From NCBI GenBank assembly GCA_965224465.1, contig OZ245049.1:4830001-4862000 (forward strand): 32,000 bases of DNA, written 5' to 3'. The notes under the pieces were generated by a model. That model worked only from the letters and a program-made list of their open reading frames with translations. It ran no database searches and was not told the DNA's origin. Both the position numbers and the translations under genes were made by a program. This DNA is from Flavobacteriaceae bacterium (GTDB lineage: Bacteria > Bacteroidota > Bacteroidia > Flavobacteriales > Flavobacteriaceae). Positions 6,137 to 26,430 of the stretch are shown here, piece after piece. Every line of letters starts with the position of its first letter. Within the stretch, counting starts at the first letter, position 1.

Positions 6137-6229
6137 GTGTTTTTTTAACTTTAAAAATAGACTTCAATAATATTTACATTCGTTATTTGTGTTGATTTAA
6201 AGATGCTTACGGAATGTGAGTGCTTTGAA

Positions 6230-6346
6230 TTGCTTGAAAATTTATAAAAGTTGAATACTTTTTTTAAAAAAACAACACATACCCCGAAACTATGATAGAC
6301 ATAACGGAAATAATGTCAAGTTTAGGGAGTTTATTGATGATATATG
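6230..6346 (+). repeat. Island repeat family A, copy 1 (contains the ACGGAAATAATGTCAAGTTT core)
   Basis: By eye it aligns along about 115 nt with 12690-12806 (ttgcttgaaaattta...gtcaagttt.g.gagtttattgatgatata). Its core is shared with 14500-14540 and 16513-16553. Confidence 0.8.
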
Positions 6347-6458
6347 GGGGTTGGGTTTCATTAGATAAGCTCATCTAAATTTTAATACATTTCAAAAGGA
6401 AATAGATAATAGCTGAAATTTTTCTAACACACCTTGATAGAAAATGGAGTTGAATTGC

Positions 6459-6466
6459 TACATTTG
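6459..6466 (+). promoter_or_regulatory. Possible Bacteroidota -7 promoter box (TACATTTG = TAnnTTTG) for the 6485-9314 operon
   Basis: Matches the TAnnTTTG consensus 19 nt upstream of ATG 6485. No clean -33 TTTG was seen. Confidence 0.25.
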
Positions 6467-6484
6467 TGAAAATCATATAGAAAA

Positions 6485-7360
6485 ATGACATTAAAAGAAA
6501 GAAATATCAATAATAAAATGAGAAGTTATTCTTCGATATTTTCTAGCACTTCTTTTTCTAAATTATTAAAAGAAGATGATTTTTCATTTATTAACTCTAA
6601 AATATCCCGTTATGATATCCCCAAAATAGGTGTGAAAATTCATACTTACACAGATTATATCAAATACACATATAATGAATTAAGGAAACAATACCGTAAT
6701 GAATATATTTATAAAAACACATTTATTAACGAAATATTAATCAATGATTATGGTGTAAAAGATACTATTGTTATCAATGAATTTCGTGTAGGTAATTCTA
6801 TTGCAGACCTTGTTATGTTTAATGGAACAAGTAAAGCCTTTGAAATTAAAACTGAACTCGACACAGATAAACGCCTAAGTGGTCAGTTACTAGATTATAA
6901 AAAAGCATTTAAAGAATGTTATATTGTTACTCACGAATCGCTTACTGCTAAATATTTAAAAGAAGATAACTCTATCGGTATTATTGAATTAATTGAAACC
7001 CCAAGAGGATTGAAAATGCAAGAAGTAAGACCCGCAATAGAGAATGAAGAAGTGGATTCTGAAACGATAATGCGTTGCCTTAGAACCAACGAGTACAAAA
7101 GTATTGTAAAGAAACACTACAATGAATTACCTGAAATGACTAGTTTTAATATGTTTAATATTTGTAAAGAATTATTGTTTCAAATTCCTAATGACATTCT
7201 CAATCTATTATTTATTGGGCAGTTAAAATTAAGAAAATCCAATACATCTAAAATAAATACACACCTTAAAGAATTGAGACAAATAGGTATTGCTTTAAAT
7301 TTAGATGCTAAACTATCTGGGCAATTAATTAATAAACTCAATACAACTATTAAATTATAA
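6485..7360 (+). CDS. sce7726-family-like protein with a PD-(D/E)xK nuclease-type motif
   Basis: YRNEYIYKNTFINEIL...INEFRVGNSIADLVMFNGTSKAFEIKTELD gives an E...D...ExK arrangement. The overall pattern matches my recollection of the sce7726 family, which normally pairs with sce7725. The next ORF begins 4 nt later. Confidence 0.65.
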   Translation: MTLKERNINNKMRSYSSIFSSTSFSKLLKEDDFSFINSKISRYDIPKIGVKIHTYTDYIKYTYNELRKQYRNEYIYKNTFINEILINDYGVKDTIVINEFRVGNSIADLVMFNGTSKAFEIKTELDTDKRLSGQLLDYKKAFKECYIVTHESLTAKYLKEDNSIGIIELIETPRGLKMQEVRPAIENEEVDSETIMRCLRTNEYKSIVKKHYNELPEMTSFNMFNICKELLFQIPNDILNLLFIGQLKLRKSNTSKINTHLKELRQIGIALNLDAKLSGQLINKLNTTIKL

Positions 7361-7364
7361 TATT

Positions 7365-8285
7365 ATGTATTATCCATATCTTAGAGGACGACAATTTGAG
7401 TTAATTGCTTTACGAGAGTACGCTTTAATCAGAGGTGAAAATAATAATGTTATACCTATAATAGAGCCTGTTAAAAAAACGTTTAACAGTTTAAAATTGG
7501 CTATTCCCAAATTTATAGAAGGGAATATGAGATTTGCATTGATACTAAACCCGCAGGTTGGAGAAATTAAAAATTTTAAAACTATTGTTACTGAATTACA
7601 AGAGCAATTAGCAGATAAATCTAAATGGATTCCTGCATTTATTGTTACAACCAATATTGATTTAATAAATAAAGAAATTGAGAGCAATAATTATACTGAA
7701 GTTATGATTATTTGTTCGGATAGAGCTGATACAACGAGTGCTGGTTTTTTAGAATTTATATCTGATAAAAGAATAAAATATGTTGTTTCTAAAGAGAACA
7801 GAACTTTAAAAAGAAAATTAAAAGGAAAAGATGTTATTAGGCTAGATGATAGTTTTAACTCACAAAAAAGGAATAAAGATTTTTTATCCATAAGTGAAGA
7901 AAAGTTTACGGAAGAGCATTTGTTTTATAAAGATGATAATTATGCGGGTTTTTCGGACTATACTGCTCTTATCAGTGATTTTATAGAGGGAGGTGGAGCA
8001 CCATATGCTGTTGCCATTCACTTGACCTATCAAAAGGATAGTGAAGATATTTGGATTCGTCATTTTACATCTATTAGCAATGATGATATTGCAAATATTC
8101 AAGGAAAGTTTGCAGAGGCTGTAAGAAAAGCAGTTAATTTTATTGATACAGAGTCATTAGATACGGAAGCAACAAAAGAATTGAAAAATTATTATGTTGA
8201 AGAGAAGTATCCTGGGCTTGGAATGGTAAAAAAAATTTCAATTAAAAACCACTTAGAATTAATCAACAAAGTAATTTCAAAATAG
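7365..8285 (+). CDS. sce7725 / Beta-protein family member (phage P4 beta-like)
   Basis: The N-terminus MYYPYLRGRQFELIALRE...VIPIIEPV is the characteristic start of the Pfam Beta_protein / sce7725 family. Tightly spaced between both neighbours. Confidence 0.65.
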   Translation: MYYPYLRGRQFELIALREYALIRGENNNVIPIIEPVKKTFNSLKLAIPKFIEGNMRFALILNPQVGEIKNFKTIVTELQEQLADKSKWIPAFIVTTNIDLINKEIESNNYTEVMIICSDRADTTSAGFLEFISDKRIKYVVSKENRTLKRKLKGKDVIRLDDSFNSQKRNKDFLSISEEKFTEEHLFYKDDNYAGFSDYTALISDFIEGGGAPYAVAIHLTYQKDSEDIWIRHFTSISNDDIANIQGKFAEAVRKAVNFIDTESLDTEATKELKNYYVEEKYPGLGMVKKISIKNHLELINKVISK

Positions 8286-8288
8286 TAT

Positions 8289-9314
8289 ATGAAAGTTTGT
8301 AAAGAATGTTTCAACGATATTGAAATTAGAAGTTTTATAGAGTTCAATTCATTAGACAAAGGAAAATGTGATTATTGTAGCAATGGCATTCATTCAGAAT
8401 TAATTGAAGTAGGAGAATTGTTAGATTTCTTCGCAGAATTTGTTGATGTTTTTGAAGAAGATCCTGATGGAAATGAAACATTAACTGAGCTTATTCAAAA
8501 AGATTGGAATTTATTTGCAGGAGAAAGTGAAGCACATGATGTTTTATCTGATATTCTATTAGCATTAGGTACTCCAATTACTTCTCCTTCTGACATTGTG
8601 AGTTATGCTACTGGAATTAATGATTGTATTTCATATTGGGATACACTAAAGGAAGAGTTGAAGTGGCGGAAAAGGTTTTTAACAAATACAGAAGAACTTG
8701 AAAACTTAGGATGGGATAGCCTTTTCAGTATTGAAAATATTTTACCTGCTAATACAACTCTTTACAGAGCAAGAGTACATCATGCAGAGCGTAAAGAACC
8801 TTACGCTACAAATGAAATGGGTTACCCTGAAAAAGAAAAAGTATCAGAAGGCAGAGCAAATCCACAAGGTATACCATACTTATATCTGAGTAAAGCTCTT
8901 AAAACTACATTGTATGAAACGCGTGTATCTTACCTTGATGAATTAAGTATTGGAGAGTTTAAGATTAAAGAGGGTGAAAATATTATTTTGGTTGATTTTA
9001 CTGAAAAATTAAATGCTTTTAAAAATATTGATAATATTAAAAATCATACAAAAGGAGTGTTACTAAAAAACAGGATAAGTAAATCACTTTCTAAGCCAAT
9101 TCGCAGGTATGATTCAAGGTTAGAATATATTCCAACCCAATTTATTTGTGAATACATTAGGTATATTACAAATGCTGATGGTATTTTATTTAATAGTTCC
9201 TTAGATTTAGTTGGAGGAGTAAATGTTGTATTATTTGAACAACATAAAGTTAAATGTGATAGCGTTGAAATGTATCGGATAAAAGATATTGACATTACAC
9301 CTGAGAAAATTTAA
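8289..9314 (+). CDS. Zn-ribbon N-terminal domain fused to a RES domain (putative NAD+-targeting effector)
   Basis: N-terminus CKECF...(18)...CDYCS, a four-Cys ribbon. RES triad in the expected order and context: TLYRARVH (R), GRANPQGIPYLYLS...TLYETRV (E), ILFNSSLD (S). Confidence 0.7.
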   Translation: MKVCKECFNDIEIRSFIEFNSLDKGKCDYCSNGIHSELIEVGELLDFFAEFVDVFEEDPDGNETLTELIQKDWNLFAGESEAHDVLSDILLALGTPITSPSDIVSYATGINDCISYWDTLKEELKWRKRFLTNTEELENLGWDSLFSIENILPANTTLYRARVHHAERKEPYATNEMGYPEKEKVSEGRANPQGIPYLYLSKALKTTLYETRVSYLDELSIGEFKIKEGENIILVDFTEKLNAFKNIDNIKNHTKGVLLKNRISKSLSKPIRRYDSRLEYIPTQFICEYIRYITNADGILFNSSLDLVGGVNVVLFEQHKVKCDSVEMYRIKDIDITPEKI

Positions 9315-9362
9315 ATTTAGGGGTTTAAGGACAAGTATCAATCACTCGTTACACCAAAGAAA

Positions 9363-9488
9363 ATGATATTTGGTAGAATTAAAATAAAACAACAAAAACC
9401 CAATCGAGTAGACGGCTCCAACTTTTCCTTTGATAAAAAAGGAGCGGAAAAACTAAAAGAAAAACTAATCGAATATAAAAAGAACTAA
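9363..9488 (+). CDS. Possible 41-aa small basic protein (MIFGRIKIKQQKPNRVDGSNFSFDKKGAEKLKEKLIEYKKN)
   Basis: ATG-to-TAA ORF below the ORF-track cutoff, same strand, 48 nt after the RES gene. No motif recognised. Confidence 0.15.
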   Translation: MIFGRIKIKQQKPNRVDGSNFSFDKKGAEKLKEKLIEYKKN

Positions 9489-9498
9489 ATGCGTTGCC

Positions 9499-10697
9499 CA
9501 ATAACTAATTGTTCCTACGGTGTAGCGTCCAGTATGAACATTCTGTTGGCTATACCGGCTCAAAAGATGATACTATGGGGATTGCGTGTTTTAATTAAGA
9601 GGCTATCGATAGTAAATGCGGAAGTGTCTTTATATTCAAACCATCTTCTAATGCATGAGACGCAAAGCAATGTCGTAGGGCATGCATTGTTATAGGCTTA
9701 TCAATACCACTTTTTTTATGTGCTTGCACAAAAGCATGAGGCACACCTCCAGAACTCATAGGCTCGCCTTTAAACCTTCCATTAAAAAGATGTATTTTAG
9801 GTTTACACATTTCAAAATACCTGCGTAGCTCCTCTAAAATTGTATTATATAAAATGGTGTACCGGTCTTTCGATCCTTTTCCCCTTATTAATTCAGACAC
9901 GCATTTTTCCATCCTTTGTTTCAATGTCATGTATTTTTAAATGTACTAGTTCAGGTCTTCGGAGCCAATCGAATACAACTAGCGAAACATGACTTTGTGC
10001 TTATGATTAATACAGCTTTCAAACAATAATTGTAACTCCTCCCGACTAATAATTAAAGGTAAACTTGGCTTTTCTTTGGGATAGGGAGTTTTCTGTGTTA
10101 AGGATACATTTTCTAGTGTTTCCTGAAAGTAGTATCGCAATCCTGTGTTTATATTAACCCAAAAGTATACCGCTATTTCAGTGGAAAAGTATACCAGTAA
10201 ATTTTTAAAAAAAACTAAAAAATCAATCATCTGATCTAGCTCCAATTCCTTGGGGTCTTTATCGTGAAAATCATACAATTTGACTAGCCCACGGACATAG
10301 TTCCGTATGGTTCGATCGGATTTATTAGCAACGATCATCCGATTTTCATAAATACGAACCAAGTTTGCTAATTCTTTTTTTACTACCTTTACTTCTGTTG
10401 TACTAAGGCTTTTTTCTTCTGTGTTTTTCATGTTATTCTGATTTTAAATGAATAACACAGAAGTTAAGGGGGCGCAACGTAAGCTACACCTGAGGTGTTT
10501 AGTGCAACAAAGTGTAAAAATAATAAGGGTTAAGTGCGAAGCCAGAAGTTGGTGTGTATTAATAAAGTCCACCAAATTTATATTTTAACGGTATAAAGAA
10601 AATAAAGGTAAAAATTGTAAATTTGGATAAGTGCTAAACTCGAAAAGTAAGTGCATTTTAATTCCTTATTATTCTTATATAAACCGTTGTAGCCAAT
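9499..10697 (-). mobile_element. Putative recombinase-bearing parent copy of the inverted-repeat-bounded island element (decayed)
   Basis: The left arm 9499-9609 (caataactaattgttcctacggtgtagcg...ggctatcga) matches the left arms at 13803 and 17568. The right end, cgttgtagccaat at 10685-10697, matches 14086-14098 and 17858-17870. The interior carries the integrase pseudogene. Confidence 0.4.
9595..10431 (-). pseudogene. Tyrosine recombinase/integrase pseudogene (three in-frame stops, 3' truncation)
   Basis: ORFs 9979-10431 (SAM-like N-domain, TIRNYVRGLVKLYDFH) and 9595-9930 (GKGSKDRYT, HALRHCFASHALEDG) are in the same frame. The 9931-9978 linker reads *LYSIGSEDLN*YI*KY. The ORF stops at LLSIAS before the expected LLGH...Y catalytic-Tyr segment. 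Confidence 0.8.
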
Positions 10698-10720
10698 TCC
10701 TACTTTTAAAGAAAAAAAAT

Positions 10721-12145
10721 ATGAAACTAAAAATTACTTTTTTATGTCTTTTAGCACTAATTCATGTTAGTTGTCAAAATAAAATTTCAGGAACTTCAGA
10801 AGAAGATTTTAAATCATCTCGAATAGAAGTGATAAAAGACTTAACATCTGAAGAACAAGAAAAGTTAGAAAAAGCATTTAGGATTGTTGCCTTATATGCA
10901 ATGGAAGAGAAATGGAATAATTCTGACAACTATATTGACAAATCTATAAACGAAATCACACTAGATATTGTAAACAATAAAACGTACAATGGCCTTGTTG
11001 ATTTTGCGGAAAATTTTCTAAAACTAGAAAATAAAGAAAAAATAAAAAAAATTGAAATGAAAATTTCAGATATAGGATTAAATAGAAAAAAGACTGATTC
11101 TATTATTAGAATACTAGAAGCTTTTAAACCTACAGGAATCAAAATCTATAAAGGAAGTTGGGATGAACCTACTGTTAGTGTTAAAATACTTAATAAAGGT
11201 AACTTAACCGAAATAACTGAATATATGTTTAATTTATGTATATACTCCATTTCTCAAAATAAAGTGATTGATGTTGTGGTGTCTGGTGGTGGTTCTGAAA
11301 AAGGAAGGTCAAAGGGAGAAGGCGATTTTTTTGCTTATGTGTCAAGGTCCTTATCTCCAATAATTGCAAAAAGTAAACGCTTAGAAAAGCAACTGAAAAA
11401 CCCTGAATATCCTATTACCAATTTACAAGAATATGACTTACGTGTAGAGGTCAGACCAAGTAAAATAGTTCTTAAAGACGGAACTAGATATGATTATCCA
11501 AAAAAGATTTTAGCTGATTATGATGCTGAAATTAAAATTTTACAAGAGCAATTAAAACAATTAAAATCTTTAGATGTGAGACTAGACGAATTATCACTTA
11601 AAGAATCAGATTCAGAAAATGAAACCGCTTATAATGAAGAGTTCTTACCATTATTAGAAAAAATAAGAAAGGTTAAAAATAATTCTGATGAAAGAGTATT
11701 AAAAATACATAAAAATCTAGCCTTCACTTTCCCCTCTAAATATGAAATTAAAAAAGAAAAAAATGGGGGAATATATATCTTTTCATTAAGTGATAGTCTA
11801 AGTTATGATATTAGTGATAAAAATCTTATTCAATATCAAATAAGAGATACTGCATATATAGAATATGAAGACAAGTATGATAAAGAGCATGGTGTACTAA
11901 ATATCTTAAAAAAAGAAAACGTATCCTACGATATTAAAGAAACTATTAACAGTTTGAAAATTGCAGGTGGCCATTATAAGTTAATTGATGCTGATGATTC
12001 AGGGTATATATACTTCCGTAGTGATTCTTACAAACTTTTACGTTATTTTAAAATAAAAGGTACTCATTATTCGTATTCTATGGATTTCAATAATTTAAAG
12101 GAATGTATCCGAGAATTTGACCGTTCAAAAGGAATGATAAAGTAA
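10721..12145 (+). CDS. Hypothetical lipoprotein with a coiled-coil-rich central region
   Basis: The internal ATG at 10721 gives MKLKITFLCLLALIHVSC (lipobox Cys). The ORF is long and uninterrupted in AT-rich DNA. No family recognised. Confidence 0.6.
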   Translation: MKLKITFLCLLALIHVSCQNKISGTSEEDFKSSRIEVIKDLTSEEQEKLEKAFRIVALYAMEEKWNNSDNYIDKSINEITLDIVNNKTYNGLVDFAENFLKLENKEKIKKIEMKISDIGLNRKKTDSIIRILEAFKPTGIKIYKGSWDEPTVSVKILNKGNLTEITEYMFNLCIYSISQNKVIDVVVSGGGSEKGRSKGEGDFFAYVSRSLSPIIAKSKRLEKQLKNPEYPITNLQEYDLRVEVRPSKIVLKDGTRYDYPKKILADYDAEIKILQEQLKQLKSLDVRLDELSLKESDSENETAYNEEFLPLLEKIRKVKNNSDERVLKIHKNLAFTFPSKYEIKKEKNGGIYIFSLSDSLSYDISDKNLIQYQIRDTAYIEYEDKYDKEHGVLNILKKENVSYDIKETINSLKIAGGHYKLIDADDSGYIYFRSDSYKLLRYFKIKGTHYSYSMDFNNLKECIREFDRSKGMIK

Positions 12146-12162
12146 TTGGCTACAATAACTAA
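12145..12162 (+). repeat. Solo left-end of the island element (ATTGGCTACAATAACTAA)
   Basis: Same sequence as 17560-17577 (tggctacaataactaa). It is the inverted partner of TTGTAGCCAAT at 10687-10697. Confidence 0.7.
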
Positions 12163-12201
12163 CTCAACTTACGCAATATTAATTTAGATTTAAGGAAATA
12201 A

Positions 12202-12526
12202 TTGTCTATATTGTTAATAACTCTGAGAAGAAAAAAGACGGATAATTTTGTTGATTTATACACCGATTATTTGATAAGTTCAAGTTCTTATACTACAGCA
12301 ACAGGAATGTCTCACTTGCTTTGCGTAAAACATGATAAAATAACAAGAGCATTGTCAACAGGTGTTTACGACAGTAAATTTCTACAGAAAACGGTAAAGC
12401 CTTATATTGAAGAATTGACTCAAGCAAAAAAAAACATTATTTTAAGTTTTGATGATTCTATACAAGAAAAACAAGATGCAAAAGAAAGTGAACTTAACAC
12501 TTGGTATTTTGACCACGTGTTTGGGA
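12202..12526 (+). pseudogene. N-terminal fragment of a DDE transposase (IS4/IS701-like)
   Basis: FVDLYTDYLISSSSYTTATGMSHLL...HDKITRALS resembles the conserved N-terminus of Bacteroidota IS701/IS4-type transposases, from memory. It has a TTG start, covers only about 108 codons and then runs into repeat sequence at about 12521. Confidence 0.4.
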
Positions 12527-12625
12527 TACTGATAAGTATTGGTCAGCAGCGTTTGGTATGCGTTTTCCATTAGTGTCTACATTTATTTTTTTGCTTATTA
12601 GCACCTACTTTTATTTAGGCGATGC
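12521..12625 (+). repeat. Right-arm segment of the island element (gatactgataagtattggtcagcagcgtttgg...)
   Basis: Aligns with 14010-14085 and 17760-17855. Diverges before the terminal gttgtagccaat. Confidence 0.65.
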
Positions 12626-12689
12626 TTCTCCAAAAATCACAGAGATTTACACCAAGACCATCGAAATGAATAATGAAAAAATTGTTGGA

Positions 12690-12806
12690 TTGCTTGAAAA
12701 TTTAAAAAATTTGAATACATTTAACAAAAAACATCACATAATCTGAAACTATTATAGATATAACGTCAAGTTTTGTGAGTTTATTGATGATATACGTGTG
12801 TTGTAA
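12690..12806 (+). repeat. Island repeat family A, copy 2
   Basis: Aligns with 6230-6346. Relative to copy 1 it lacks the 9-nt ggaaataat. Ends in gtgttgtaaaac. Confidence 0.8.
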
Positions 12807-12824
12807 AACATTAAAAACAAAAAT

Positions 12825-13082
12825 ATGAGTAAACTTAAAAATATTTTAGAAAAACAAAACCAGATTTGGGTTTTCTTAATTGGAATAATATTAATTGCAG
12901 CAGGAATTTACTTTTTTTTAGACATACAATCTAAGGAAATAGCAGGAACAGAAGTTCGTATGAAAAAAATATTTCAACTAGTCTATAACTTTGGAGGAAA
13001 ATACGCAATCCTTGCAATTTTTGAAGTTGTAGGACTTATTGCATTAATTTCGGGAATACAACAACTAAGAAATAAATTATAA
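12825..13082 (+). CDS. Small membrane protein (two predicted TM helices)
   Basis: 85 aa with hydrophobic stretches IWVFLIGIILIAAGIYFFL and YAILAIFEVVGLIALISGI. Lies 5 nt upstream of the next ORF. Confidence 0.45.
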   Translation: MSKLKNILEKQNQIWVFLIGIILIAAGIYFFLDIQSKEIAGTEVRMKKIFQLVYNFGGKYAILAIFEVVGLIALISGIQQLRNKL

Positions 13083-13087
13083 TTAAT

Positions 13088-13807
13088 ATGAGCGAAAATA
13101 TATACTACATAATAGGAGGAATTGCAGTCGTTTTTACAATTTATATAATCTTTGTGGGCACTTATGCAAGTAAAAGAAAGAAAAAACAACTAGAGAAATT
13201 CACCAGCCTTAAACCCTTAAATAGAAACGAAAAAAACACTTTAGTCTTTGGTGCAATCCTTTCTTATCATAGAGGTGAAGATATATTAGAAATAAAGCCA
13301 AAGGATTCAATTGATTTATACAAAAACGGACTTAGAGATTCTTGGGAAATAACAAGTAAAGAAGAAGCACTTGAAACAATTAATAATTTAATTTTTTTAG
13401 AAAGAAGCAAAGAATTTGATGCCTTTTTAGAACAGCCTTCTTCCGACTTAACTAAAGTGCAAAAGAATATAGCAAAAGGTTTAAAATTAGAACTAGAAGA
13501 AATACAAAAAGTAAAATCAACTTTTGCTTGGGATACTTGTAGATCTGTATCGTTAACAAAATGGTGCTTTTGGTGTGGCTATTTATCAGAACAAGAATGT
13601 TGGGAACTTATAAACAATGCCGTAAAAGTTGCTCAAAGTTTAGGTTCAAATTGGGAAAACTATACAATCTCTTTTTTACTAGGAAGAACAATGCAAGGTT
13701 TTGATTTAGAAGACATAATAATAGAATCCGAACAACTTTTAAGTGGGGTAACTTTACTTGGGAAAAAAGAAATCCTAAGTGTTTATTCAAAATTTCCTTA
13801 CAAATAA
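13088..13807 (+). CDS. DUF1266-like protein with an N-terminal TM anchor
   Basis: FAWDTCRSVSLTKWCFWCGYLSEQECWELINNAVKVAQS...FLLGR matches the AWD..R......GY.sE.E.W signature I associate with DUF1266. N-terminal TM segment YYIIGGIAVVFTIYIIFVG. Confidence 0.6.
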   Translation: MSENIYYIIGGIAVVFTIYIIFVGTYASKRKKKQLEKFTSLKPLNRNEKNTLVFGAILSYHRGEDILEIKPKDSIDLYKNGLRDSWEITSKEEALETINNLIFLERSKEFDAFLEQPSSDLTKVQKNIAKGLKLELEEIQKVKSTFAWDTCRSVSLTKWCFWCGYLSEQECWELINNAVKVAQSLGSNWENYTISFLLGRTMQGFDLEDIIIESEQLLSGVTLLGKKEILSVYSKFPYK

Positions 13808-14110
13808 CTAGGTGTTCCTACGGTGCGTAGCGCCCAGCATGAATATAATGTTGACTATACCGGCTCAAAAGATGATACTATGGGGATTGCGTTATTTAAT
13901 TATGAGGCTATCGACAAAGATCTTTATAGATAGCACCTATTTTTAGGTCATTTGCTCTCATGCTCTTTTGTGGGGATAGATTTTCACTATTTTAAGATAC
14001 GGATTATTGTTGGTCAGCAGCGTTTGGTAAGCGTTTCCCATTACGTTGGCATGTTTTTTTTTGCTTATTAGTAGCTCCTTTTATGCGTTGTAGCCAATAG
14101 GCAGGAGGTC
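13803..14110 (+). repeat. Island element, short (MITE-like) copy
   Basis: About 300 nt, collinear with 17561-17883. The left arm overlaps the TAA stop of the DUF1266 gene. The right end is gcgttgtagccaataggcaggaggtc. Confidence 0.8.
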
Positions 14111-14155
14111 TACTTCCGCTAAACAGATAGACTGTTTTTAGTTTTCCTGTCTTAC

Positions 14156-14230
14156 AATCGTTCTATGTTTTATCAACGCTAGAACGTGAATTAAACTATT
14201 TATATCGATCATTTTGGATTGTAAGTGGAT
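14156..14230 (+). repeat. REP-like dispersed repeat (cgttct...caacgctagaacgt...ctatttatatcg.tcattttggattgtaa)
   Basis: Shares sequence with 18177-18214, 21131-21280, 21901-21966 and 26300-26430. Confidence 0.7.
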
Positions 14231-14235
14231 AAACA

Positions 14236-14540
14236 AAACACCTGAAAAACGACTAAATACGCCTAAATATTCTCTGTGAAAACAACGTAATTATCTACTA
14301 TTAAAATACCACGTTTAGGATAAGAACAAGTATTCTTGTTGATATTCTGAAAAATAGAGATTAATGTATGAAAACTTTTACGAAAAATAATTAAAAGGTT
14401 AGTGTGCAAAAAGAATGTCTTTTGTATATTTGAAGGACGCTGTATACCGTATATAGCGGAATTAAAAATAAATATAATTACACCGCTATTGTTGCTGTCA
14501 CGGAAATAACGTCAAGTTTTGGCTTGTTATTGTGGATATA
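14236..14540 (+). repeat. 305-bp direct repeat B, copy 1 (ends with the family-A core)
   Basis: Near-identical by eye to 16249-16553, with scattered substitutions. Contains a TATATTTG box and hairpin-forming segments. Confidence 0.9.
14425..14432 (+). promoter_or_regulatory. TAnnTTTG -7-like box (TATATTTG) inside repeat B; conserved copy at 16447-16454
   Basis: Exact consensus match conserved in both repeat copies, followed by conserved hairpins. The distance to ATG 14702 is about 270 nt. Confidence 0.3.
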
Positions 14541-14701
14541 TCTGTTATTTGGTTCTTTTCTAGTACTATAGTGCTTCCTAGAAATAGATTTTTATAGATT
14601 TGAGCAATATGAGTAACAAAATCGAAGCACTGACACCCAACATTAGTTAAAATCAATACTACCCTTCGGTCGTACTGCTATTAGCCCTATTCTAAAAAAA
14701 A

Positions 14702-15859
14702 ATGCCATCAACAATAACAAAGTATAAGATTTTTTTAGCTTCACCAAGTGACCTTCAGGATGATAGAGCTTCTATTGACGAAGTTATAAATGAGTTAAAT
14801 TTCACATTTGGAAAGCAACACGATATTCATTTGGAACTATTAAAATGGGAAACACATTCAGCACCAGCAATTGCAATTAATCATCCTCAAGAAATTATAA
14901 ACTCTGATTTAGGAGACGACTATGATTTATTTATTGGACTTATCTGGAAAAAATTTGGAACACCAACAAAAGAAGCTGATTCTGGAACAGAGGAAGAATT
15001 TTTGAATGCATATAATCGATTTTTAGAAAATCCTAATTCACTACAGATTCTCTTTTATTTTAATAGTAAACCAGTATCTATAAGTGAGATGAATGCTGAA
15101 CAATTATTAAAAATTCAAAATTTCAAATCGGATATAGGGAAAAATAAAAAAGTTTTATATTGGGAGTATCAAGATACACAGCAATTAAATAAGTTTTTGA
15201 GAATACATATTCCTCAAAGAATATTAGAATTAAAAAAAAGTGCACAAAATAAGTTAGCTATTATAGAAAAAGATGAAGTTTTAGCAGTTGAGATATTAAG
15301 TGAAGAGTTTGGACTAATTGATTATCAAGAAATGATAGAAGATGGTTTTCGAGAATCTACAGAATCTTTGTTAAGAATTTCAAATGCTACCGAATGGATT
15401 GGCGAACAGCTGAATAAAAAAACAGCCGAGGCAAATACTATGACAGCTAATGGTAATCAACCCAGTCTCAAAACATTAAAAAATTATTTTATTAGAACTG
15501 CCAAAATAATGGATAATTATGCTAATCGTATTGAACCTGAAATTCCAATATTTCAAGAATATTTTGAAAAAGGAATAGACGCATTATCTAATGTAATTAA
15601 TATTTCAACAAACGACTTAGGTGTCGAACAGGATGAAATTGATGAAACTAAAGAATCCTTAGCAAGCCTTATCGAAGGAATATCATTTGGAATAGATAGT
15701 ATGAACAGTTTTTTACAATCGGTAAATGATCTACCAAGGATGTCTAAAGAATTAAATAAAGCTAAAACTAACGTTGGAACAAAATTAGAAGATTTATTAG
15801 ATAATTTAAGGATTAGCTTATCAATAGGAATTGAGTTAAAAAAGAGCCTTGAGGAATAA
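14702..15859 (+). CDS. DUF4062/TIR-like N-terminal domain protein with a helical C-terminal region
   Basis: The N-terminus YKIFLASPSDLQDDRASIDEVINEL ... DLFIGLIWKKFGTP...SGTEEEF matches the (V/I)F(I/L)SS..DL..ER ... G.....SGTE.E pattern recalled for DUF4062-type TIR-like domains. The C-terminal ~200 aa are rich in helix formers. Confidence 0.5.
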   Translation: MPSTITKYKIFLASPSDLQDDRASIDEVINELNFTFGKQHDIHLELLKWETHSAPAIAINHPQEIINSDLGDDYDLFIGLIWKKFGTPTKEADSGTEEEFLNAYNRFLENPNSLQILFYFNSKPVSISEMNAEQLLKIQNFKSDIGKNKKVLYWEYQDTQQLNKFLRIHIPQRILELKKSAQNKLAIIEKDEVLAVEILSEEFGLIDYQEMIEDGFRESTESLLRISNATEWIGEQLNKKTAEANTMTANGNQPSLKTLKNYFIRTAKIMDNYANRIEPEIPIFQEYFEKGIDALSNVINISTNDLGVEQDEIDETKESLASLIEGISFGIDSMNSFLQSVNDLPRMSKELNKAKTNVGTKLEDLLDNLRISLSIGIELKKSLEE

Positions 15860-16092
15860 AACTGTGCCCCTAACCCCTAGTGATTAAAATTACGTGGGGC
15901 CGTTGAATCCTACTAATTTTATCGTCTTGTTGCACTGAACGCCGTGTAATTACAAGCAATAGTTATTAAAATACCTCCTTGTGTATTTTTGGTTGTGTAA
16001 TTTGAAGACAGCCATTTTTGGATTGACTACAGCCATTTTTTTATAAAAACACTTGTTTTAAGTCCATTATTCTTTATGTTTTAGGGTAAATG

Positions 16093-16248: not shown

Positions 16249-16553
16249 AAACACCTGAAAATTACTAAATACGCCTAAATATTCTCTGTGAAAACAACGT
16301 AATTACCTAATATTAAAATACCTCGTTTAGTATAAAAATAGGTACTCTTGTTGATATTATGAAAAACAGAGATTAATGGTTGAAAACTTTTACGAAAAAC
16401 AATTAAAAGGTTAGTGTGCGAAAAGGATGTCTTTTGTATATTTGAAGGACGCTGTATACTGTATATAGCGGATTTTTTAAATAAATATAATTACACCGCT
16501 ATTGTAGCTATTACGGAAATAACGTCAAGTTTTGGCTTGTTATTGTGAATATA
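16249..16553 (+). repeat. 305-bp direct repeat B, copy 2
   Basis: See 14236-14540. Here it points into the 3' end of the convergent antitoxin gene. Confidence 0.9.
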
Positions 16554-16598
16554 GAGGTGTTGTACCCCGTTGGAATAGAGATGGTGAAATGGCGATTT

Positions 16599-17096
16599 CT
16601 ATATTCCTAATTCCATTATTTTCTTCGAAAGTTCTTCTTTTTTACGATTGTCTATAGAATCACACACTCGAATATAATAAGATAAAATATCTTTATTATT
16701 AATACTCATCTTGATTAATCTTCCACTAGTCAGAGATGTTACTCCATCATTTTCAATATTAGAGATTGTATTTTTACTAAAACCTAATATGACACTTAAT
16801 GTTGATGCAGCAATATGATATTTTTCCCTAAAACTAATAATTTCATTTGGAGCAGCAGCCCCTTTGGCTATAAGATAAGAACTCTTTAGTTTTTTCATAT
16901 TACGACTAACTTGACCCTTAGTGTAATACTCAACTTTACTTTGTCTATTGATCATACCAGTATCTTCATCAACATCATAGTCTAAATAATACACTTCCTT
17001 ATATGTTAACTTAATACCTTTGAACGTTTTTTCTACAGTTCGTTGTAATTCATCGGTAGGTTTATTCTCTCTTGTTAATATTTTTTTTGTTTCCAT
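16599..17096 (-). CDS. XRE-type HTH protein, MqsA-like antitoxin candidate
   Basis: C-terminal HTH REKYHIAASTLSVILGFSKNTISNIENDG. Located 4 nt downstream of the toxin-like ORF, in toxin-first order as in mqsRA. Confidence 0.55.
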   Translation of the reverse strand: METKKILTRENKPTDELQRTVEKTFKGIKLTYKEVYYLDYDVDEDTGMINRQSKVEYYTKGQVSRNMKKLKSSYLIAKGAAAPNEIISFREKYHIAASTLSVILGFSKNTISNIENDGVTSLTSGRLIKMSINNKDILSYYIRVCDSIDNRKKEELSKKIMELGI

Positions 17097-17100
17097 AATT

Positions 17101-17481
17101 TTAATTTTTAAATGGTTGACTCATTGGGTAATCAGGTATATGGTTTGAGAATATTAGAATTTGTAAGCCATTAACTTCAAGTCCATATTTCAAATAAACT
17201 TCAACCTTAGCATTTCCGACAAATACACGAAAAGCACAAACATTAAAATCACCTCCGCCAGATGGGGCAATACCTCTGTAATAATTTTCAGGTGTTAAAT
17301 TTAGAATTGCATATTCTATGTCATCCTCATTTATATCATAATCGAGCATTAATTCCTCTAACTCAGAATTCGCTTTTCTTGTGAAAGTTATATCTACGCC
17401 CTCAGAAATTCTCTTTTTTGTCTCTGCTAGAAATTCCTGTATTATTTTAATATTGTCAATCGTGTCTGGTAATATTATCAT
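17101..17481 (-). CDS. MqsR-like toxin candidate
   Basis: The internal ATG at 17481 (MIILPDT) is preferred over the tracked start. Small protein with LNLTPENYYRG...VCAFRVFVGNAKVEVYLKYGL...ILIFSNH, which resembles the MqsR family layout from memory. Confidence 0.45.
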   Translation of the reverse strand: MIILPDTIDNIKIIQEFLAETKKRISEGVDITFTRKANSELEELMLDYDINEDDIEYAILNLTPENYYRGIAPSGGGDFNVCAFRVFVGNAKVEVYLKYGLEVNGLQILIFSNHIPDYPMSQPFKN

Positions 17482-17560
17482 AGATGTAATTATATAGCTT
17501 ATGCAAATATACATAAAACACCTACTAATTCCCAATAATTGGGTAAGAAATACAATAGCT

Positions 17561-17883
17561 GGCTACAATAACTAAGTGTTCCTACGGTGCGTAGCGCCCA
17601 GTATGAACATCCTGTTGACTATACCCGCTCAAAATCTATTACTATGAGTATTGCGTATTTTAATTAAGAGGCTATCGACAAAGATCTTTATAGATAGCAC
17701 CTATTTTTAGGTCATTTGCTCTCGCGCTCTTTCATAGGAATTGGTTTGTACTGTTTTTCGATACTGATAAGTATTGGTCAGCAGCGTTTTGGCATGCGTT
17801 TTCCTTTAAGGGGCTACATTTATTTTTTTTGTTCGGTTATTAGTACATGCTTTTATTCGTTGTAACCAATAGGCAGGAGGTCA
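17561..17883 (+). repeat. Island element, short (MITE-like) copy
   Basis: ggctacaataactaagtgttcctacggtgcgtagcg ... ttattcgttgtaaccaataggcaggaggtc. Collinear with 13803-14110. The termini are inverted repeats of each other (ggctacaa / ttgtaacc). Confidence 0.8.
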
Positions 17884-18107: not shown

Positions 18108-18149
18108 GAAAAAACAAAAGATAGCCACAATGGCTATCTTTTGTTTTAA
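18108..18149. terminator. Bidirectional rho-independent terminator
   Basis: Perfect 13-bp stem, caaaagatagcca (18115-18127) with tggctatcttttg (18131-18143), and a 3-nt loop. An A-run lies on the left and a T-rich run on the right. About 75 nt past the alpha-galactosidase stop. Confidence 0.75.
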
Positions 18150-18176
18150 ATAAGAATGAGACCTAAAGTAATACCA

Positions 18177-18214
18177 AACTATTTATATCGTTGGTTTTGG
18201 ATTGTAATTGATAT
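18177..18214 (+). repeat. REP-like dispersed repeat (short form)
   Basis: aactatttatatcgttggttttggattgtaattgatat. Abuts the stop codon of the minus-strand gene at 18218. Confidence 0.65.
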
Positions 18215-18217
18215 AAG

Positions 18218-19456
18218 TTATTTAGGACTCTTAGTTTTTGCTTCTTGAAAAGGATTAAAATTATTAGAAGTTCCTTTGAATTTCAACACTATTACAGCAT
18301 GGTTTGGAATGGTAAAAGTGATTTTTTCAGCTGTTTTTTTAGCGTATTTTTTATCCGTCCATTGGTTTTCTATAGTATAACCAGCGCTTGCTTGCATTCC
18401 TATATCTTTGATGTCAAAAGTAAAGCTAGCTGTTTTATTTGAACGATTTAGTAGAGCCACAGCTACTTTTCCACTCATGGTATGCAAAAGAGGTTTAGCC
18501 CATAGTTCCACACTGTCGGTTTTTATCAATCTACGTGCTTGATAGCCCAATGCGTCTTGATTGATGGAAATAAGTTTTTTATTGGTTAAAATATCAATTG
18601 TCTGTTGCGACATTGCACTCAAATCATTTCCCGCTAATAAAGGAGAATTCATCATGCACCACATGCTAAAATGTGCTTTATCTTCGTCCAATGTCATTCC
18701 GCGTCCTACTTGTAACATGTCCATGTCGTTTACATGTCCAGGAGAAGAATACATCCATAAATCTGCATTTAAATCTATAATGTCTAGGATGGATTGGAAT
18801 TCGTTCGTGATATCTCCAGATATTCTCCATGAATCAGCAATTGGGAGTGCCCATTTACCAGGGAATTCCCATCTACAGATATTATAAATGGCAGTGGGTT
18901 TAATTTCGTGAATTAATTTCCCAATGTTGGTGTAACTGGTTTGCTCATCCAGTCCAAGCCATTCACCTCCACACCAATCTATTTTTAAAAAATCATAATT
19001 CCATGTTTTTAAAAACAAAGAGATGTCTTTTTGTTCGTGTCCATACATTCCAGATCCTACACTAATAGGGTCTTTGTCCCAACGGGAACCACAAGTATTG
19101 ATTCCTCCATCGGAGTATATTCCTGCTTTTAATCCTTTTGAATGTATGTAGTCTGAGAGGCTACGCATTCCAGAAGGAAATCGTGTTTTATGTGAAAGTA
19201 AATTACCGATACTGTCTCTTCCTCCAAAAAAACCATCATCTATATTAATAAAACTATAACCCGCATCTTTCATTCCAGAAGAGACCATAAAATCTGCTTG
19301 TTTTTTAATGATGTCTTCATTGATCTTTGTATGGTAGTTATTCCAACTTGCCCAACCCATTAATGGAGTCTTTGGTTTTGAAACATTGTTTTCTGTTACT
19401 GGTTCTGAACAGGAATAACAAATGTAAATCAGCAATAGACAGGTGATTTTTTTCAT
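18218..19456 (-). CDS. Alpha-galactosidase, glycoside hydrolase family 27, lipoprotein
   Basis: PLMGWASWNNY...FINIDDGFF...DFLKIDWCGG motifs are typical of GH27 melibiases. Signal MKKITCLLLIYICYSC. Confidence 0.85.
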   Translation of the reverse strand: MKKITCLLLIYICYSCSEPVTENNVSKPKTPLMGWASWNNYHTKINEDIIKKQADFMVSSGMKDAGYSFINIDDGFFGGRDSIGNLLSHKTRFPSGMRSLSDYIHSKGLKAGIYSDGGINTCGSRWDKDPISVGSGMYGHEQKDISLFLKTWNYDFLKIDWCGGEWLGLDEQTSYTNIGKLIHEIKPTAIYNICRWEFPGKWALPIADSWRISGDITNEFQSILDIIDLNADLWMYSSPGHVNDMDMLQVGRGMTLDEDKAHFSMWCMMNSPLLAGNDLSAMSQQTIDILTNKKLISINQDALGYQARRLIKTDSVELWAKPLLHTMSGKVAVALLNRSNKTASFTFDIKDIGMQASAGYTIENQWTDKKYAKKTAEKITFTIPNHAVIVLKFKGTSNNFNPFQEAKTKSPK

Positions 19457-20975: not shown

Positions 20976-21080
20976 ACTTCCAAATGACTGTATAGGAAGA
21001 ACGTTTTATTTTTTGATTTATCTAGCTGGAAATCTAAGGATACCCTTAGCTACCGTTCTGTTTTTTAAGAATGATAAAAC
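20976..21080 (+). repeat. REP-like dispersed repeat, divergent copy
   Basis: cttccaaatgactg...tctagctgg...cccttagctaccgttctg parallels 21131-21225. Confidence 0.5.
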
Positions 21081-21130
21081 GAAAAAAGCTTGATTTACAA
21101 CAGTCATTTGGATGTGTTTTTGGTCTAATA

Positions 21131-21280
21131 CATTTCCAAGTGACGTTTTAGAAATGGAATTATTTTTTGTTTTAGCTAGGTAAAAATGGAAGGATAACCA
21201 TAGCTATCGTTCTATTTTTTAACAACGCTAGAATGTAAAACAAACTATTTATATCGGTCATTTTGGATTGTAATTGGTAT
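21131..21280 (+). repeat. REP-like dispersed repeat, full-length copy
   Basis: catttccaagtgacgttttagaaatggaattattttttgttttagctagg...ccatagctatcgttct...caacgctagaatgt...ctatttatatcggtcattttggattgtaattggtat. Confidence 0.8.
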
Positions 21281-21869: not shown

Positions 21870-21900
21870 TGTTCACATGTTGTTTGATAGTTGCATCAAA

Positions 21901-21966
21901 CATATTTCCAAGTGACGGTTTAGAAATGGAATTATTTATATCCGTCATTTTGGATTGTAATTGGTG
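21901..21966 (+). repeat. REP-like dispersed repeat, internally deleted copy
   Basis: catatttccaagtgacggtttagaaatggaattatttatatccgtcattttggattgtaattggtg. Ends 1 nt from the RND stop codon. Confidence 0.75.
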
Positions 21967-24900
21967 TTAATTGTTTGGGTACTTATGTTTTTCTGTCATG
22001 TAATATACCAGCGGAACTACTAATAATGTCAATATCGTAGATACAATGGTTCCTCCCATTAAGGAAATAGCAAGTCCTTGAAAAATAGGGTCAAATAGAA
22101 TAACAAATGCACCTATTACTACGGTTCCAGCTGTTAATAAGATAGGCACTGTTCGTACGGCTCCTGCTTCTATTACAGCTTGTTTTATGGGGATTCCATC
22201 ATCTAAACGGAGTTCGATAAAATCAATTAACAATACCGAGTTTCGTACCATTATTCCTGCCAATGCGATCATTCCAATCATGGAGGTTGCAGTAAAAAAT
22301 GCACCCATAATCCAGTGTCCTAAGATAATTCCTATCATCGATAAAGGAACAGCTACAAGCATTACTAAAGGAGCTTTGAAGTTTTGAAACCAACCTACAA
22401 TAAGGATGTAAATCACTAAAATTGCAATCCCAAAAGCGGCTCCTAAATCTCTAAATACTTCGTACGTTATTTGCCATTCTCCATCCCATTTTACGGTGTA
22501 TTGATCTTCGTATTCTGGTTGTTTATTAAATTCTTCTTGCAAGATGTATCCTGTTGGCATGTCAATTTCTGACAGTCTGTCTGACATGTTTAATATTCCA
22601 TACACAGGGCTTTCTAACACTCCAGCCATATCTGCCAATACATACACCACTCGTTTTTGATTTTTATGGTAGATGGCTTTTTTTCGTATTGATTCTTCGA
22701 TGTTAACGAGGTCTCCAATAGGAATTGACATACCGTTTTTTGAAATAATTTTTAGGTTTTTCAAATCTTGTATAGAGGATTTTTCTTTTTCATCCAAACT
22801 CAAAACAATTCCAATTTGTTGATTGGCAGTTTCCTTGTAAATAGTTGATATAGGCATTTCTGACAATGCCATTTTTAATGTTTTTACAATCTGAATAGGG
22901 GCAATGCCATAGCGCATTGCTTTTTCTTTGTCTATTTTAAAGTTGTATTCAATTTGGTCGGCTTCCACCATCCAATCTACATCTACAATATCTGGTGTAG
23001 ATTTGAGTATGGATTCCAATTGTTTGGCAATAGCCATTTGTCCTTTGTAATCAGGGCCATAAACTTCTGCTACAATAGTTGATAATACGGGAGGTCCTGG
23101 AGGAACTTCTACTAATTTCACATTGGCATTGTAGCGATTTCCAATTTCTTGTATGTCGGCTCTTAGTTTTTTAGCAATAGCATGGCTTTGCTCACTTCGG
23201 AGTTCTTTGTCTATTAAATTTACCTGAATATCTGCCATATTCGAGCCACCTCGTAAGTCATAATGACGTACCAATCCATTAAAAGTAATAGGAGCAGAGG
23301 TGCCAATATAACTTTGATGATTGTCTACTTCTGGGCGTTGCGAAAGGTAATAGGCTATTTCTCTAGTCACAGCAGCGGTGCGTTCTAAGGTTGTTCCTTC
23401 TGGCATGTCTATGACTATTTGGAACTCGTTTTTGTTATCAAAAGGCAGCATTTTTACGGCTACTGATTTGGTAAAAAACAATGTCATAAAAAGAAGTAAT
23501 GTTCCAAAAGTAATTCCTAAAAATAGCCATCTTTTTTTACGGTTTTCTAACAAAGGTTTTTCCATTTTGTTGTAAATCCTATAAATCAAAGTGGTTTCCA
23601 ATCCTTTTACTTTCTTTGCATCTTGTTTGTCTTTTTCTTTTAATAAATGCACGCCTAAATACGGTGTAATAGTCAAGGCTACAAATAAGGATAATATCAT
23701 AGCAATAGACGCTCCGATAGGCATGGGACTCATATAAGGCCCCATTAAACCAGATACAAATGCCATTGGCAATACAGAAGCAATTACGGTGAAAGTTGCG
23801 AGTATTGTTGGGTTTCCAACTTCGTTGATAGCATAGAGTGCAGCCTGTTTAAAAGGCAGGCGTTTCATTTTAAAATGACGATGCATGTTTTCGGCAATAA
23901 TAATGGAGTCGTCTACAACAATTCCAGTTACAAATACCAATGCAAAAAGTGTAATTCTATTCAATGTGTAATCTAGCATATAATAGCTAAATAAGGTCAA
24001 AGCAAAGGTGATAGGAACGGAAAGGAATACGACCAATCCTCCGCGCCATCCCATAGCCAACATAACTACGATGGTAACGGCAATAATAGAACCGAATAAG
24101 TGCAATAGTAATTCAGACACTTTATGAGAAGCTGTTTCTCCATAGTTTCTTGTAACGGAAACATGCACTTCGTTTGGAATTAATGTTTGTTTTAAATGTT
24201 CAACTTTGGCAAGGATAATTTCGGATATTTTCATGGCATCTGCCCCTTTTCGTTTTGCAATGGATAGGGTTATAGCAGGATAATCACCTTTAAATTTACT
24301 TGAATTTTTATGAGCCTTTCCATAGCCAAACGATACATAGTTTTTTGGGATTTCAGGGCCGTCTATTACAGAAGCTACTTGCTTTAAGTAAATAGGATGG
24401 TTTTTATGAATGCCAATCACAAGGTTTTCTACATCTTCTATAGTGGCTAAAAAATCACCTGTGTTTACAAGATATTCAGTATCGTTATTATTGAAACTAC
24501 CTGCTGTTTGTTGAGCGTTGTTGGCTTGTATTTTTTGACTGATGCTTAAAAAATCAACACCGCTTTCTGCCATTTTAGCTTTGTCTAGTACTACACGAAA
24601 TTGTTGATTTCGACCCCCAATAGTTTTAGTGATCGCTACATCATTTATCTTTTCAATTTCTGTGCGTAGTTCTTGCGCTATTTTTTTTAGTTGATAGTCG
24701 TCATAAGTTTCACTCCACAAGGTGAGTCCCAACATTGGTACATCATCTATTGCACGTGTTTTTATCAATGGAAGTGAAACACCTTGAGGCATTTGATCCA
24801 TGTTTTTCATGATTTCGTTGTACAATTTCACGAAAGAACGTTCAATGTCTTCACCTACATAAAATTGAACAATGATGATGGCTTGTTCGTTCATAGAGGT

Positions 24901-26299: not shown

Positions 26300-26430
26300 A
26301 GAAATGGAATTATTTTTTGTTTTAGCTAGGCGGAAAATGGGTTGATAACCGTAGCTATCGTTCTGTTTTTCAACAACGCTAGAACGTAAAACAACTATTT
26401 ATAGCTATCATTTTGGGTTGTAATTGGTAT
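26300..26430 (+). repeat. REP-like dispersed repeat, full-length copy overlapping the TolC gene 3' end
   Basis: gaaatggaattattttttgttttagctaggcgg...ccgtagctatcgttctg...caacgctagaacgt...ctatttatagctatcattttgggttgtaattggtat. Confidence 0.8.

Follow-up and report, generated by a model that had tools for sequence, protein, structure and literature searches.

A repeated non-coding unit in a Flavobacteriaceae chromosome is probably a spacer module of integron-like cassette arrays

Our analysis suggests that a repeated unit of about 285 nt in a Flavobacteriaceae chromosome is probably the conserved non-coding tail piece, or spacer module, of one family of gene cassettes in an integron-like or rAID-like array. 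On its own, the unit would be a passive spacer rather than a new kind of mobile element. This reading is built on the position and boundaries of the unit, a census of its copies, the identity of the recombinase beside one of them, and the observation that the unit neither folds nor codes for a protein. A sequence-only reading had taken the short copies for MITE-like deletion derivatives of a recombinase-bearing parent; three of the outcomes which it had itself named as speaking against this were found.

The sequence studied, here called the window, comprises 32,000 nt (bases 4,830,001-4,862,000 of contig OZ245049.1, assembly GCA_965224465.1, Flavobacteriaceae bacterium) of a chromosome of 5.24 Mb with 33.6% G+C. 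The array lies between a molybdopterin oxidoreductase / NrfD operon, which ends at 6136, and an alpha-galactosidase gene (18218-19456, minus strand). In a relative (G002) the sequence behind the nrfD-like gene is not related to that of the window, but the contig ends after 930 nt. About five cassettes are present, carrying three genes including RES, a 474-aa lipoprotein-like protein, a small membrane protein with a DUF1266 protein, a DUF4062 / PDC-S60-like protein, and an HTH pair. The features are as follows, a slash within a sequence marking the edge of a box or the crossover point:

6225-6340, plus strand: array start, with a relic of the last codons of the Xer-like recombinase and an attI-like core (..ACGGAAATAATGTCAAGTTT..GATATATGGGGG), G6340 before TT (repeat families D13, D6, D7)
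6341-9403, plus strand: cassette 1, start box TTGGGTTTCAT, end box AAACCCAA, three ORFs (domain and defence-model matches)
6485-7360, plus strand: cassette 1 ORF 1, PADLOC PDLC02989 (1e-20)
7365-8285, plus strand: cassette 1 ORF 2
8289-9314, plus strand: cassette 1 ORF 3, RES with HEPN/RES N-terminal domain
9404-9501, no strand assigned: inferred spacer piece, begins TCGAGTAGACGGCTCCAAC, ends G9493/TTGCCCAA
9502-9609, plus strand: repeat copy 1, left arm only (unit positions 1 to about 112; family D4, alignment of copies)
9610-10508, minus strand: IS91-family remnant, integrase pseudogene 9610-10431, 5' end of the element G/TTGCACTAAAC at 10508
10687-12155, plus strand: cassette 2, perfect 11-nt boxes TTGTAGCCAAT (10687-10697) and ATTGGCTACAA (12145-12155), ORF 10721-12145
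12156-12614, plus strand: repeat copy 4, disrupted; unit start 12156-12161, insertion sequence 12162-12526, right part 12526-12614 (families D11, D12, D16)
12615-12800, plus strand: recombinase 3'-end relic and attI-like core ending GATATACGTGTG before TT at 12801
12801-13804, plus strand: cassette 3, 85-aa membrane protein 12825-13082 and DUF1266 protein 13088-13807
13805-14087, plus strand: repeat copy 2, complete, TAACTAGGTG...TTTTATGCG, then TT at 14088 (family D2)
14088-14544, plus strand: spacer remainder after copy 2 (families D1, D3, D5, D7)
15876-15989, minus strand: IS91-family antisense 3'-terminal hairpin piece, abutting the end box (..GTGCCCCTAA) of the DUF4062 / PDC-S60-like cassette
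16560-17569, plus strand: last cassette, with minus-strand ORFs 16599-17096 (HTH) and 17101-17535, end box CTGGCTACAA
17570-17859, plus strand: repeat copy 3, complete (family D2), followed by TTGTAACCAATAGGCAGGAGGTC (17860-17882) as the array end

In the arrangement that we propose, a cassette is a variable stretch that opens with TT and six further bases (TT+N6) right after a G and closes with their reverse complement (N6'+AA). The unit starts at the next base after this end box (TAACTAAGTG...), its full form continues via further modules to an attI-like core ending in G, and at that G the next cassette starts. The Xer-like recombinase of the arrays would move cassettes at G/TT. The unit has neither transposition machinery nor ends of its own. 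It would be copied when this recombinase moves or duplicates cassettes together with their spacers, and local duplication or gene conversion within arrays may have spread it additionally. The unit may be functionally neutral, or would at most provide a stop codon and a 3' hairpin for cassette transcripts.

The left arm of about 110 nt was recovered at the three sites reported earlier (9502-9609, 13805-13914 and 17570-17678; 88-90% alike), and the two short copies were likewise confirmed as units of about 285 nt (13805-14087 and 17570-17859; family D2, 86%). The right terminus is complete in the short copies, but copy 1 has just 13 nt of the unit on this side (CGTTGTAGCCAAT, 10685-10697). Its arms had been said to enclose a recombinase; the stretch 9610-10684 is without any homology to the unit. 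Of the inverted pair TTGTAGCCAAT/ATTGGCTACAA that had been described as the termini, the plus-strand member stands as reported at 10687, 14088 and 17860, but the minus-strand member occurs at 12145 only. A 9/11 version of the latter is found at 17562, and the left edges of copies 1 and 2 (GCGTTGCCCAA, TTCCTTACAAA) differ from the pair. The fourth copy had been overlooked; it was entered six bases in by a DDE_5 insertion sequence, of which the left 365 nt are present (12162-12526) and the rest is cut off. Four fuller copies of this insertion sequence (94%) are located at genome positions 2641474, 3652088, 4408926 and 4437152.

Around these copies the spacers are modular. The stop codon of the second ORF in cassette 3 is the first TAA of repeat copy 2, and behind this copy follow a 70-nt piece that occurs only beside the repeat (14088-14156), the right half of a 160-nt MITE (14157-14231), and a module of about 300 nt with the attI-like core at its end (14246-14544, G14544/TT), a second copy of which occupies 16258-16559. 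The attI-like core recurs in the window at 6290-6340, 12744-12800, 14490-14544 and 16503-16559. The spacer piece behind cassette 1 opens with TCGAGTAGACGGCTCCAAC, which is identical to the antisense 3' terminus of a group II intron at other cassette ends; about 20 nt of such an intron end are left in the window (9404-9424); for the whole stretch 9404-9501 no other copy was found. As to the cargo, the three-gene cassette (6485-9314) is a candidate defence or toxin module, as judged from its model and domain matches. The DUF4062 protein (ORF 14702-15859) matches the PADLOC candidate system PDC-S60 with 9e-51, over its first 246 residues only and to a model of 906 positions.

A BLASTN run established that further copies exist in the genome. 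We obtained 41 BLAST matches to the unit with 74-88% identity, far above chance, and about 57 loci when fragments are counted, most of them lined up in one direction, with 13 loci at 1.18-1.235 Mb and five at 1.023-1.032 Mb as examples. While the left edge is constant, the right end varies: about 17 loci extend to unit position ~310, about 15 end at 268-289, eight end at 183-252, and about 15 consist of the left arm alone and stop before 160. Orientation follows the leading strand in 43 of the 57 loci (GC skew places the origin near 2.96 Mb). All copies lie within arrays, and an attI-like core on the same strand is located within 5 kb of 22 of the 57 loci, compared with 1.4 expected. Within the genus, each of the other four genomes contains the unit, whereas 36 genomes from other genera lack it. 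A species-representative collection gave one match, a Flavobacteriaceae MAG, and searches of a metagenome collection and of phage records gave none. In a tree of the unit copies, array labels change 22 times compared with 29.5 times after shuffling (0 of 200 shuffles as low), and well-supported sisters from different arrays, with different upstream cassettes, also occur. Unit copies have therefore spread both locally and between arrays.

The edges of the unit are explained by the cassette boxes. Every aligned copy starts at one base, (A)ATAACTAAGTGTTC, and the preceding 10-20 nt are private to each copy; the left flank thus differs at every copy, and the earlier claim of a conserved left terminus fails. 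The private sequence has its reverse complement 0.5-3.5 kb upstream, directly after the G that closes a recognisable spacer, as in GATATACGGGTG/TTGGCAGTAAT ... ACTACTGCCAA/TAAC. An exact 10-mer partner (G+TT+N7) was found for 9 of 45 copies, compared with a mean of 0.56 and a maximum of 4 for swapped boxes and with 0 in a downstream control; the remaining copies need mismatches or have no partner. The perfect pair in the window (10687 and 12145) brackets the ORF 10721-12145 and no repeat copy. Since the inverted 11-mers pair across the genes between units, they bracket cassettes, as in integrons, and not the units. What had been seen as the inverted termini of an element are in fact matched cassette boxes (G/TT+N6 ... 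N6'+AA/) around inter-unit genes; the boxes belong to the cassette flanks, and the interior of the unit has no pairing partner. Consistent with a tail position, 39 of 51 copies are closely preceded by the stop codon of a same-strand ORF of at least 60 codons, at a distance of a few to about 37 nt and mostly of 10-17 nt. In the 1.21-Mb array, neighbouring spacers share a block of about 690 nt, from AA/TAAC to GGATATAGAGGTG/, which is 94-96% identical between them, while the flanking sequence on either side is unrelated. This block opens with the unit and finishes with the attI-like core at the G/ crossover point, and the cassettes to its left and right are unrelated.

The decayed tyrosine recombinase gene in copy 1 was borne out (minus strand 9610-10431, Pfam Phage_integrase 1.8e-14). 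It contains three in-frame stops and is cut at about residue 269. Read through the stops, it has 234 homologues of 290-304 aa at E<=1e-10, the best of them 75% identical, and in every context read the integrase homologue is directly followed by a Zn_Tnp_IS91/Y2_Tnp gene. This order, with an integrase gene ahead of a Y2 (HUH) transposase gene, is presumably that of the IS91-family elements of the ISfinder description. Such an element of 2,473 nt is defined by two near-identical copies on different contigs (L020 114-2586, L021 103-2575); it runs from G/TTGCACTAAAC to ...CGCTAAGTGTTAA, and its 5' end is shared with window position 10508. Its ends are themselves cassette-like, with start box G/TTGCACTAAAC, matched end box GTTCAGTGCAA and a hairpin site ending CTAAGTG/TT. 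Homology of the pseudogene to a close relative breaks off exactly at 9610, where it abuts the left arm of the unit. The Y2 HUH transposase (Zn_Tnp_IS91 + Y2_Tnp) is missing from 9610-10508, and this stretch is therefore the remnant of an IS91-family element, dead in contrast to such elements, having lost the transposase gene as well as the integrase C-terminus and with its reading frame interrupted. In the whole genome only fragments of this integrase and of the Y2 transposase were found, and no intact copy of either. From these comparisons, we see the recombinase beside copy 1 as a passenger: it is the integrase of an IS91-family element, which apparently fell into the spacer and was then truncated together with part of the unit.

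Inside the pseudogene, at 10140-10200, about 75 nt with the direct repeat GGTATACTTTT stand in place of the normal coding sequence, and the translated piece recurs at genome positions 1173736, 2160224 and 5113813 (77-84% over 23-26 residues). It is probably a small repeat inserted in the integrase gene.

That the unit is a MITE-like deletion derivative of a tyrosine-recombinase element, with copy 1 as its decayed full-length copy, appears to us highly improbable. Like MITEs the unit is short, non-coding and multi-copy, integrase remnants lie antisense and downstream of it in at least five loci of three genomes (the window, genome positions 1207693 and 311783, and two relatives), and a tblastn alignment of an intact homologue extends slightly into the left arm. 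A single chance insertion of the integrase does not fully explain these recurrent remnants. However, no two loci share the unit position at which unit and integrase join, integrases of this family are encoded by the leading gene of IS91-type elements whose ends (G/TTGCACTAAAC ... CGCTAAGTG) are unrelated to the unit, and the so-called termini are cassette boxes. Neither the genome, nor 200 genomes of the family, nor pattern scans yielded a copy whose arms enclose an intact recombinase, and no autonomous parent with common ends was seen. The short copies had also been thought to keep a relic of an integrase C-terminus. We compared a profile of 115 integrase C-termini with six-frame translations of 41 copies and of shuffled sequences: the profile separates copy 1 (45.5 bits) from all others (best 8.4; best shuffle 7.1), and no frame of the unit beats shuffled sequence. 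A blastx lead to such a relic (HVMGNACQNAADQYL..., E about 2-9) was dropped, as was the idea that the unit is the end of an IS91-type element, in view of its lack of similarity to four such elements. In contrast to MITEs, the unit has no target duplication, and with its left flank varying per copy it has no terminal inverted repeats of its own; its right end is variable, and its loci are bound to arrays instead of dispersed over unrelated sites. A true MITE adjoins it, 160 nt long with 12-nt inverted ends (ATACCAAATACA...TGTAATTGGTAT) and about 480 BLAST hits genome-wide. The main rival to the spacer module is a non-autonomous site-specific insertion element at the end-box junction, in one orientation, similar to group IIC-attC introns or IS1111-attC elements, which target integron attC sites. 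It stays the main rival because the junction draws group II introns, IS91-type ends and the DDE_5 insertion sequence; on balance we consider it unlikely. All copies share one sharp left edge, the orientation relative to the cassettes is uniform, and the loci with the left arm alone would fit as well. Group II introns are inserted in antisense at precisely the point where cassette end boxes finish (Rfam RF02001, 126 bits), with a filled/empty pair at genome positions 3107647 (intron 3107648-3109504, L026) and 3097569 that differs by 1,857 nt with 100% identical flanks. Antisense IS91-type 3' ends abut cassette ends 12 times in the genome, including window 15876-15989. Against an insertion element, the right edge is not fixed, the conserved block continues to the next G/ point where neighbours were compared, and copies are confined to arrays. 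Empty sites were looked for, and no filled/empty pair, that is, the same cassette with and without the unit at paralogous cassette ends, was found. Furthermore, no gene product that could move the unit was identified. The resident introns sit at the junction where the unit starts, but the unit has no significant similarity to them: a derivative of the resident group II intron was rejected although GCCCAGCATG is common to both, as local alignment is at shuffle level and Rfam gave no intron match. A group II intron at a cassette end box was also seen from genome position 526795 onward.

It had been proposed alternatively that the repeats are long attC-like sites separating cassettes. The positional part of this proposal stands, the unit being found exactly between cassettes; the structural part does not. 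The unit opens right behind an end box, and at 17 loci its last letters are ..TTATTCG/TT, but the boxes belong to the cassette flanks. The single strand of an integron attC folds into an imperfect hairpin of 57-141 nt, while the unit of about 285 nt is unfolded: as single-stranded DNA the whole unit gave z values of +0.98 and +0.42, the left arm -0.44 and the right end +0.65 and +0.28. By comparison, two other spacer types of this genome form clear hairpins beside G/TT (z -2.9 to -3.9). A giant attC hairpin was rejected, and because it does not fold, the unit cannot be the folded recombination site itself. It is also quite improbable that the unit works as an RNA or encodes a peptide, be it as a 3' hairpin that ends or stabilises transcripts, as a small RNA or through a 35-codon ORF. 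The first 45 nt can be drawn as a 15-bp hairpin, better as sense RNA with G-U pairs and located in copy 2 at 13814-13849, that pairs in 86% of cells compared with 23-49% for slid partners, and the unit provides stop codons in all three frames. However, the covariation of this hairpin is at shuffle level (0.137 versus 0.135), RNAalifold gave no consensus structure of the unit, and the Rfam search had no match even at E<=10, so that a structured RNA was rejected. A small protein was likewise rejected: of 40 copies, 8 keep the 35-codon ORF open, 13 are without its ATG and 18 have it shortened, and its peptide has no real homologue among 1.8 billion representatives. The Bacteroidetes-type promoter TAnnTTTG is found in just 10 of 40 copies.

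The recombinase of the arrays is a different enzyme from the one beside copy 1. An intact Xer-like recombinase of 378 aa is encoded at genome positions 523973-525109 and is followed by the same attI-like core and by cassettes. In the window, 12615-12731 is a 39-codon relic with 33 of 39 residues identical to its C-terminus, and about 35 such 3'-end relics are present genome-wide. The enzyme was placed in the Xer/IntI group and is 33% identical to the IS91-borne integrase. Integron integrases have an extra domain; against their model TIGR02249 both recombinases match in two stretches and stay below the cut-off of 265 bits, the Xer-like enzyme with 180 bits and the other with 166. In a separate region (683238-742107) we observed nine tyrosine recombinase genes in one direction, spaced by about 7.5 kb.

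Our literature search found no paper on such arrays in Flavobacteriia, and the nearest described system is rAID-1 of Bacteroidales. There, small genes of diverse conflict types stand in a row behind an XerD-like recombinase, which lies on their 5' side and reads in the same direction; the intergenic sequences are repetitive, and for membership the recombinase has to share 44% identity or more with B. fragilis BF9343_RS08045 (Ross et al. 2019, bioRxiv 10.1101/471110). We liken our arrays to rAID-1 by gene order and not by recombinase identity: both belong to Bacteroidota, repetitive sequences lie between the genes here too, and the order of intact recombinase and cassettes is seen at 523973-525162. 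The window holds 3'-end relics of the recombinase only (6225-6340 and 12615-12800). Further differences are the other class (Flavobacteriia), the marine organism, and the matched cassette boxes with a spacer of 300-700 nt, which are absent from the published description, where motifs are given.

Compared with sedentary chromosomal integrons and CALINs, the cassettes look similarly promoterless, each start is the reverse complement of the cassette's own end, the crossover is at G/TT, and group II introns insert at the site. The repeat family is homogenised within arrays, and the repeats of Vibrio cholerae likewise are a homogeneous attC family. The differences lie in the recombinase with its two-piece match below the cut-off, in the unit, which is two to five times longer than any attC and unfolded, and in the attI-like cores, which are repeated between cassettes instead of occurring once. 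A more speculative idea, which we hold to be rather doubtful, is that the arrays of these Flavobacteria could be a gene-capture platform distinct from integrons. Recombination would use a core in double-stranded form that derives from the recombinase gene's 3' end, long unfoldable spacers being tolerated for this reason. The platform might also be evolutionarily tied to, or even mobilised by, IS91-type rolling-circle elements, which carry a related integrase (33% identical) and show the same end grammar (G/TT start box, matched end box, hairpin, G/TT).

As a marker, the unit labels about 57 cassette ends in this genome, with boundaries to the base. An integron-like system with unfolding spacers of 300-700 nt is unexpected from integron biology, and since the arrays carry defence- or toxin-type genes (RES, DUF4062 / PDC-S60-like, DUF1266), these findings bear on gene collection by marine Flavobacteria.

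Some further repeats were noted. Pieces of the 160-nt MITE lie in the window at 14157-14231, 18140-18214, 21029-21280, 21896-21967 and 26300-26430; the repeat families D3, D5, D9, D14 and D18 are such pieces, and in a close relative (L018) this MITE splits the IS91-type transposase gene. Near genome position 1190403, one type of spacer carries CACTAGGGCTAA...TTAGCCCTAGTG, a perfect stem of 12 bp, right in front of G/TT (z -3.5), and a decayed copy of it, with the G/TT lost, is present in the window at 14625-14690.
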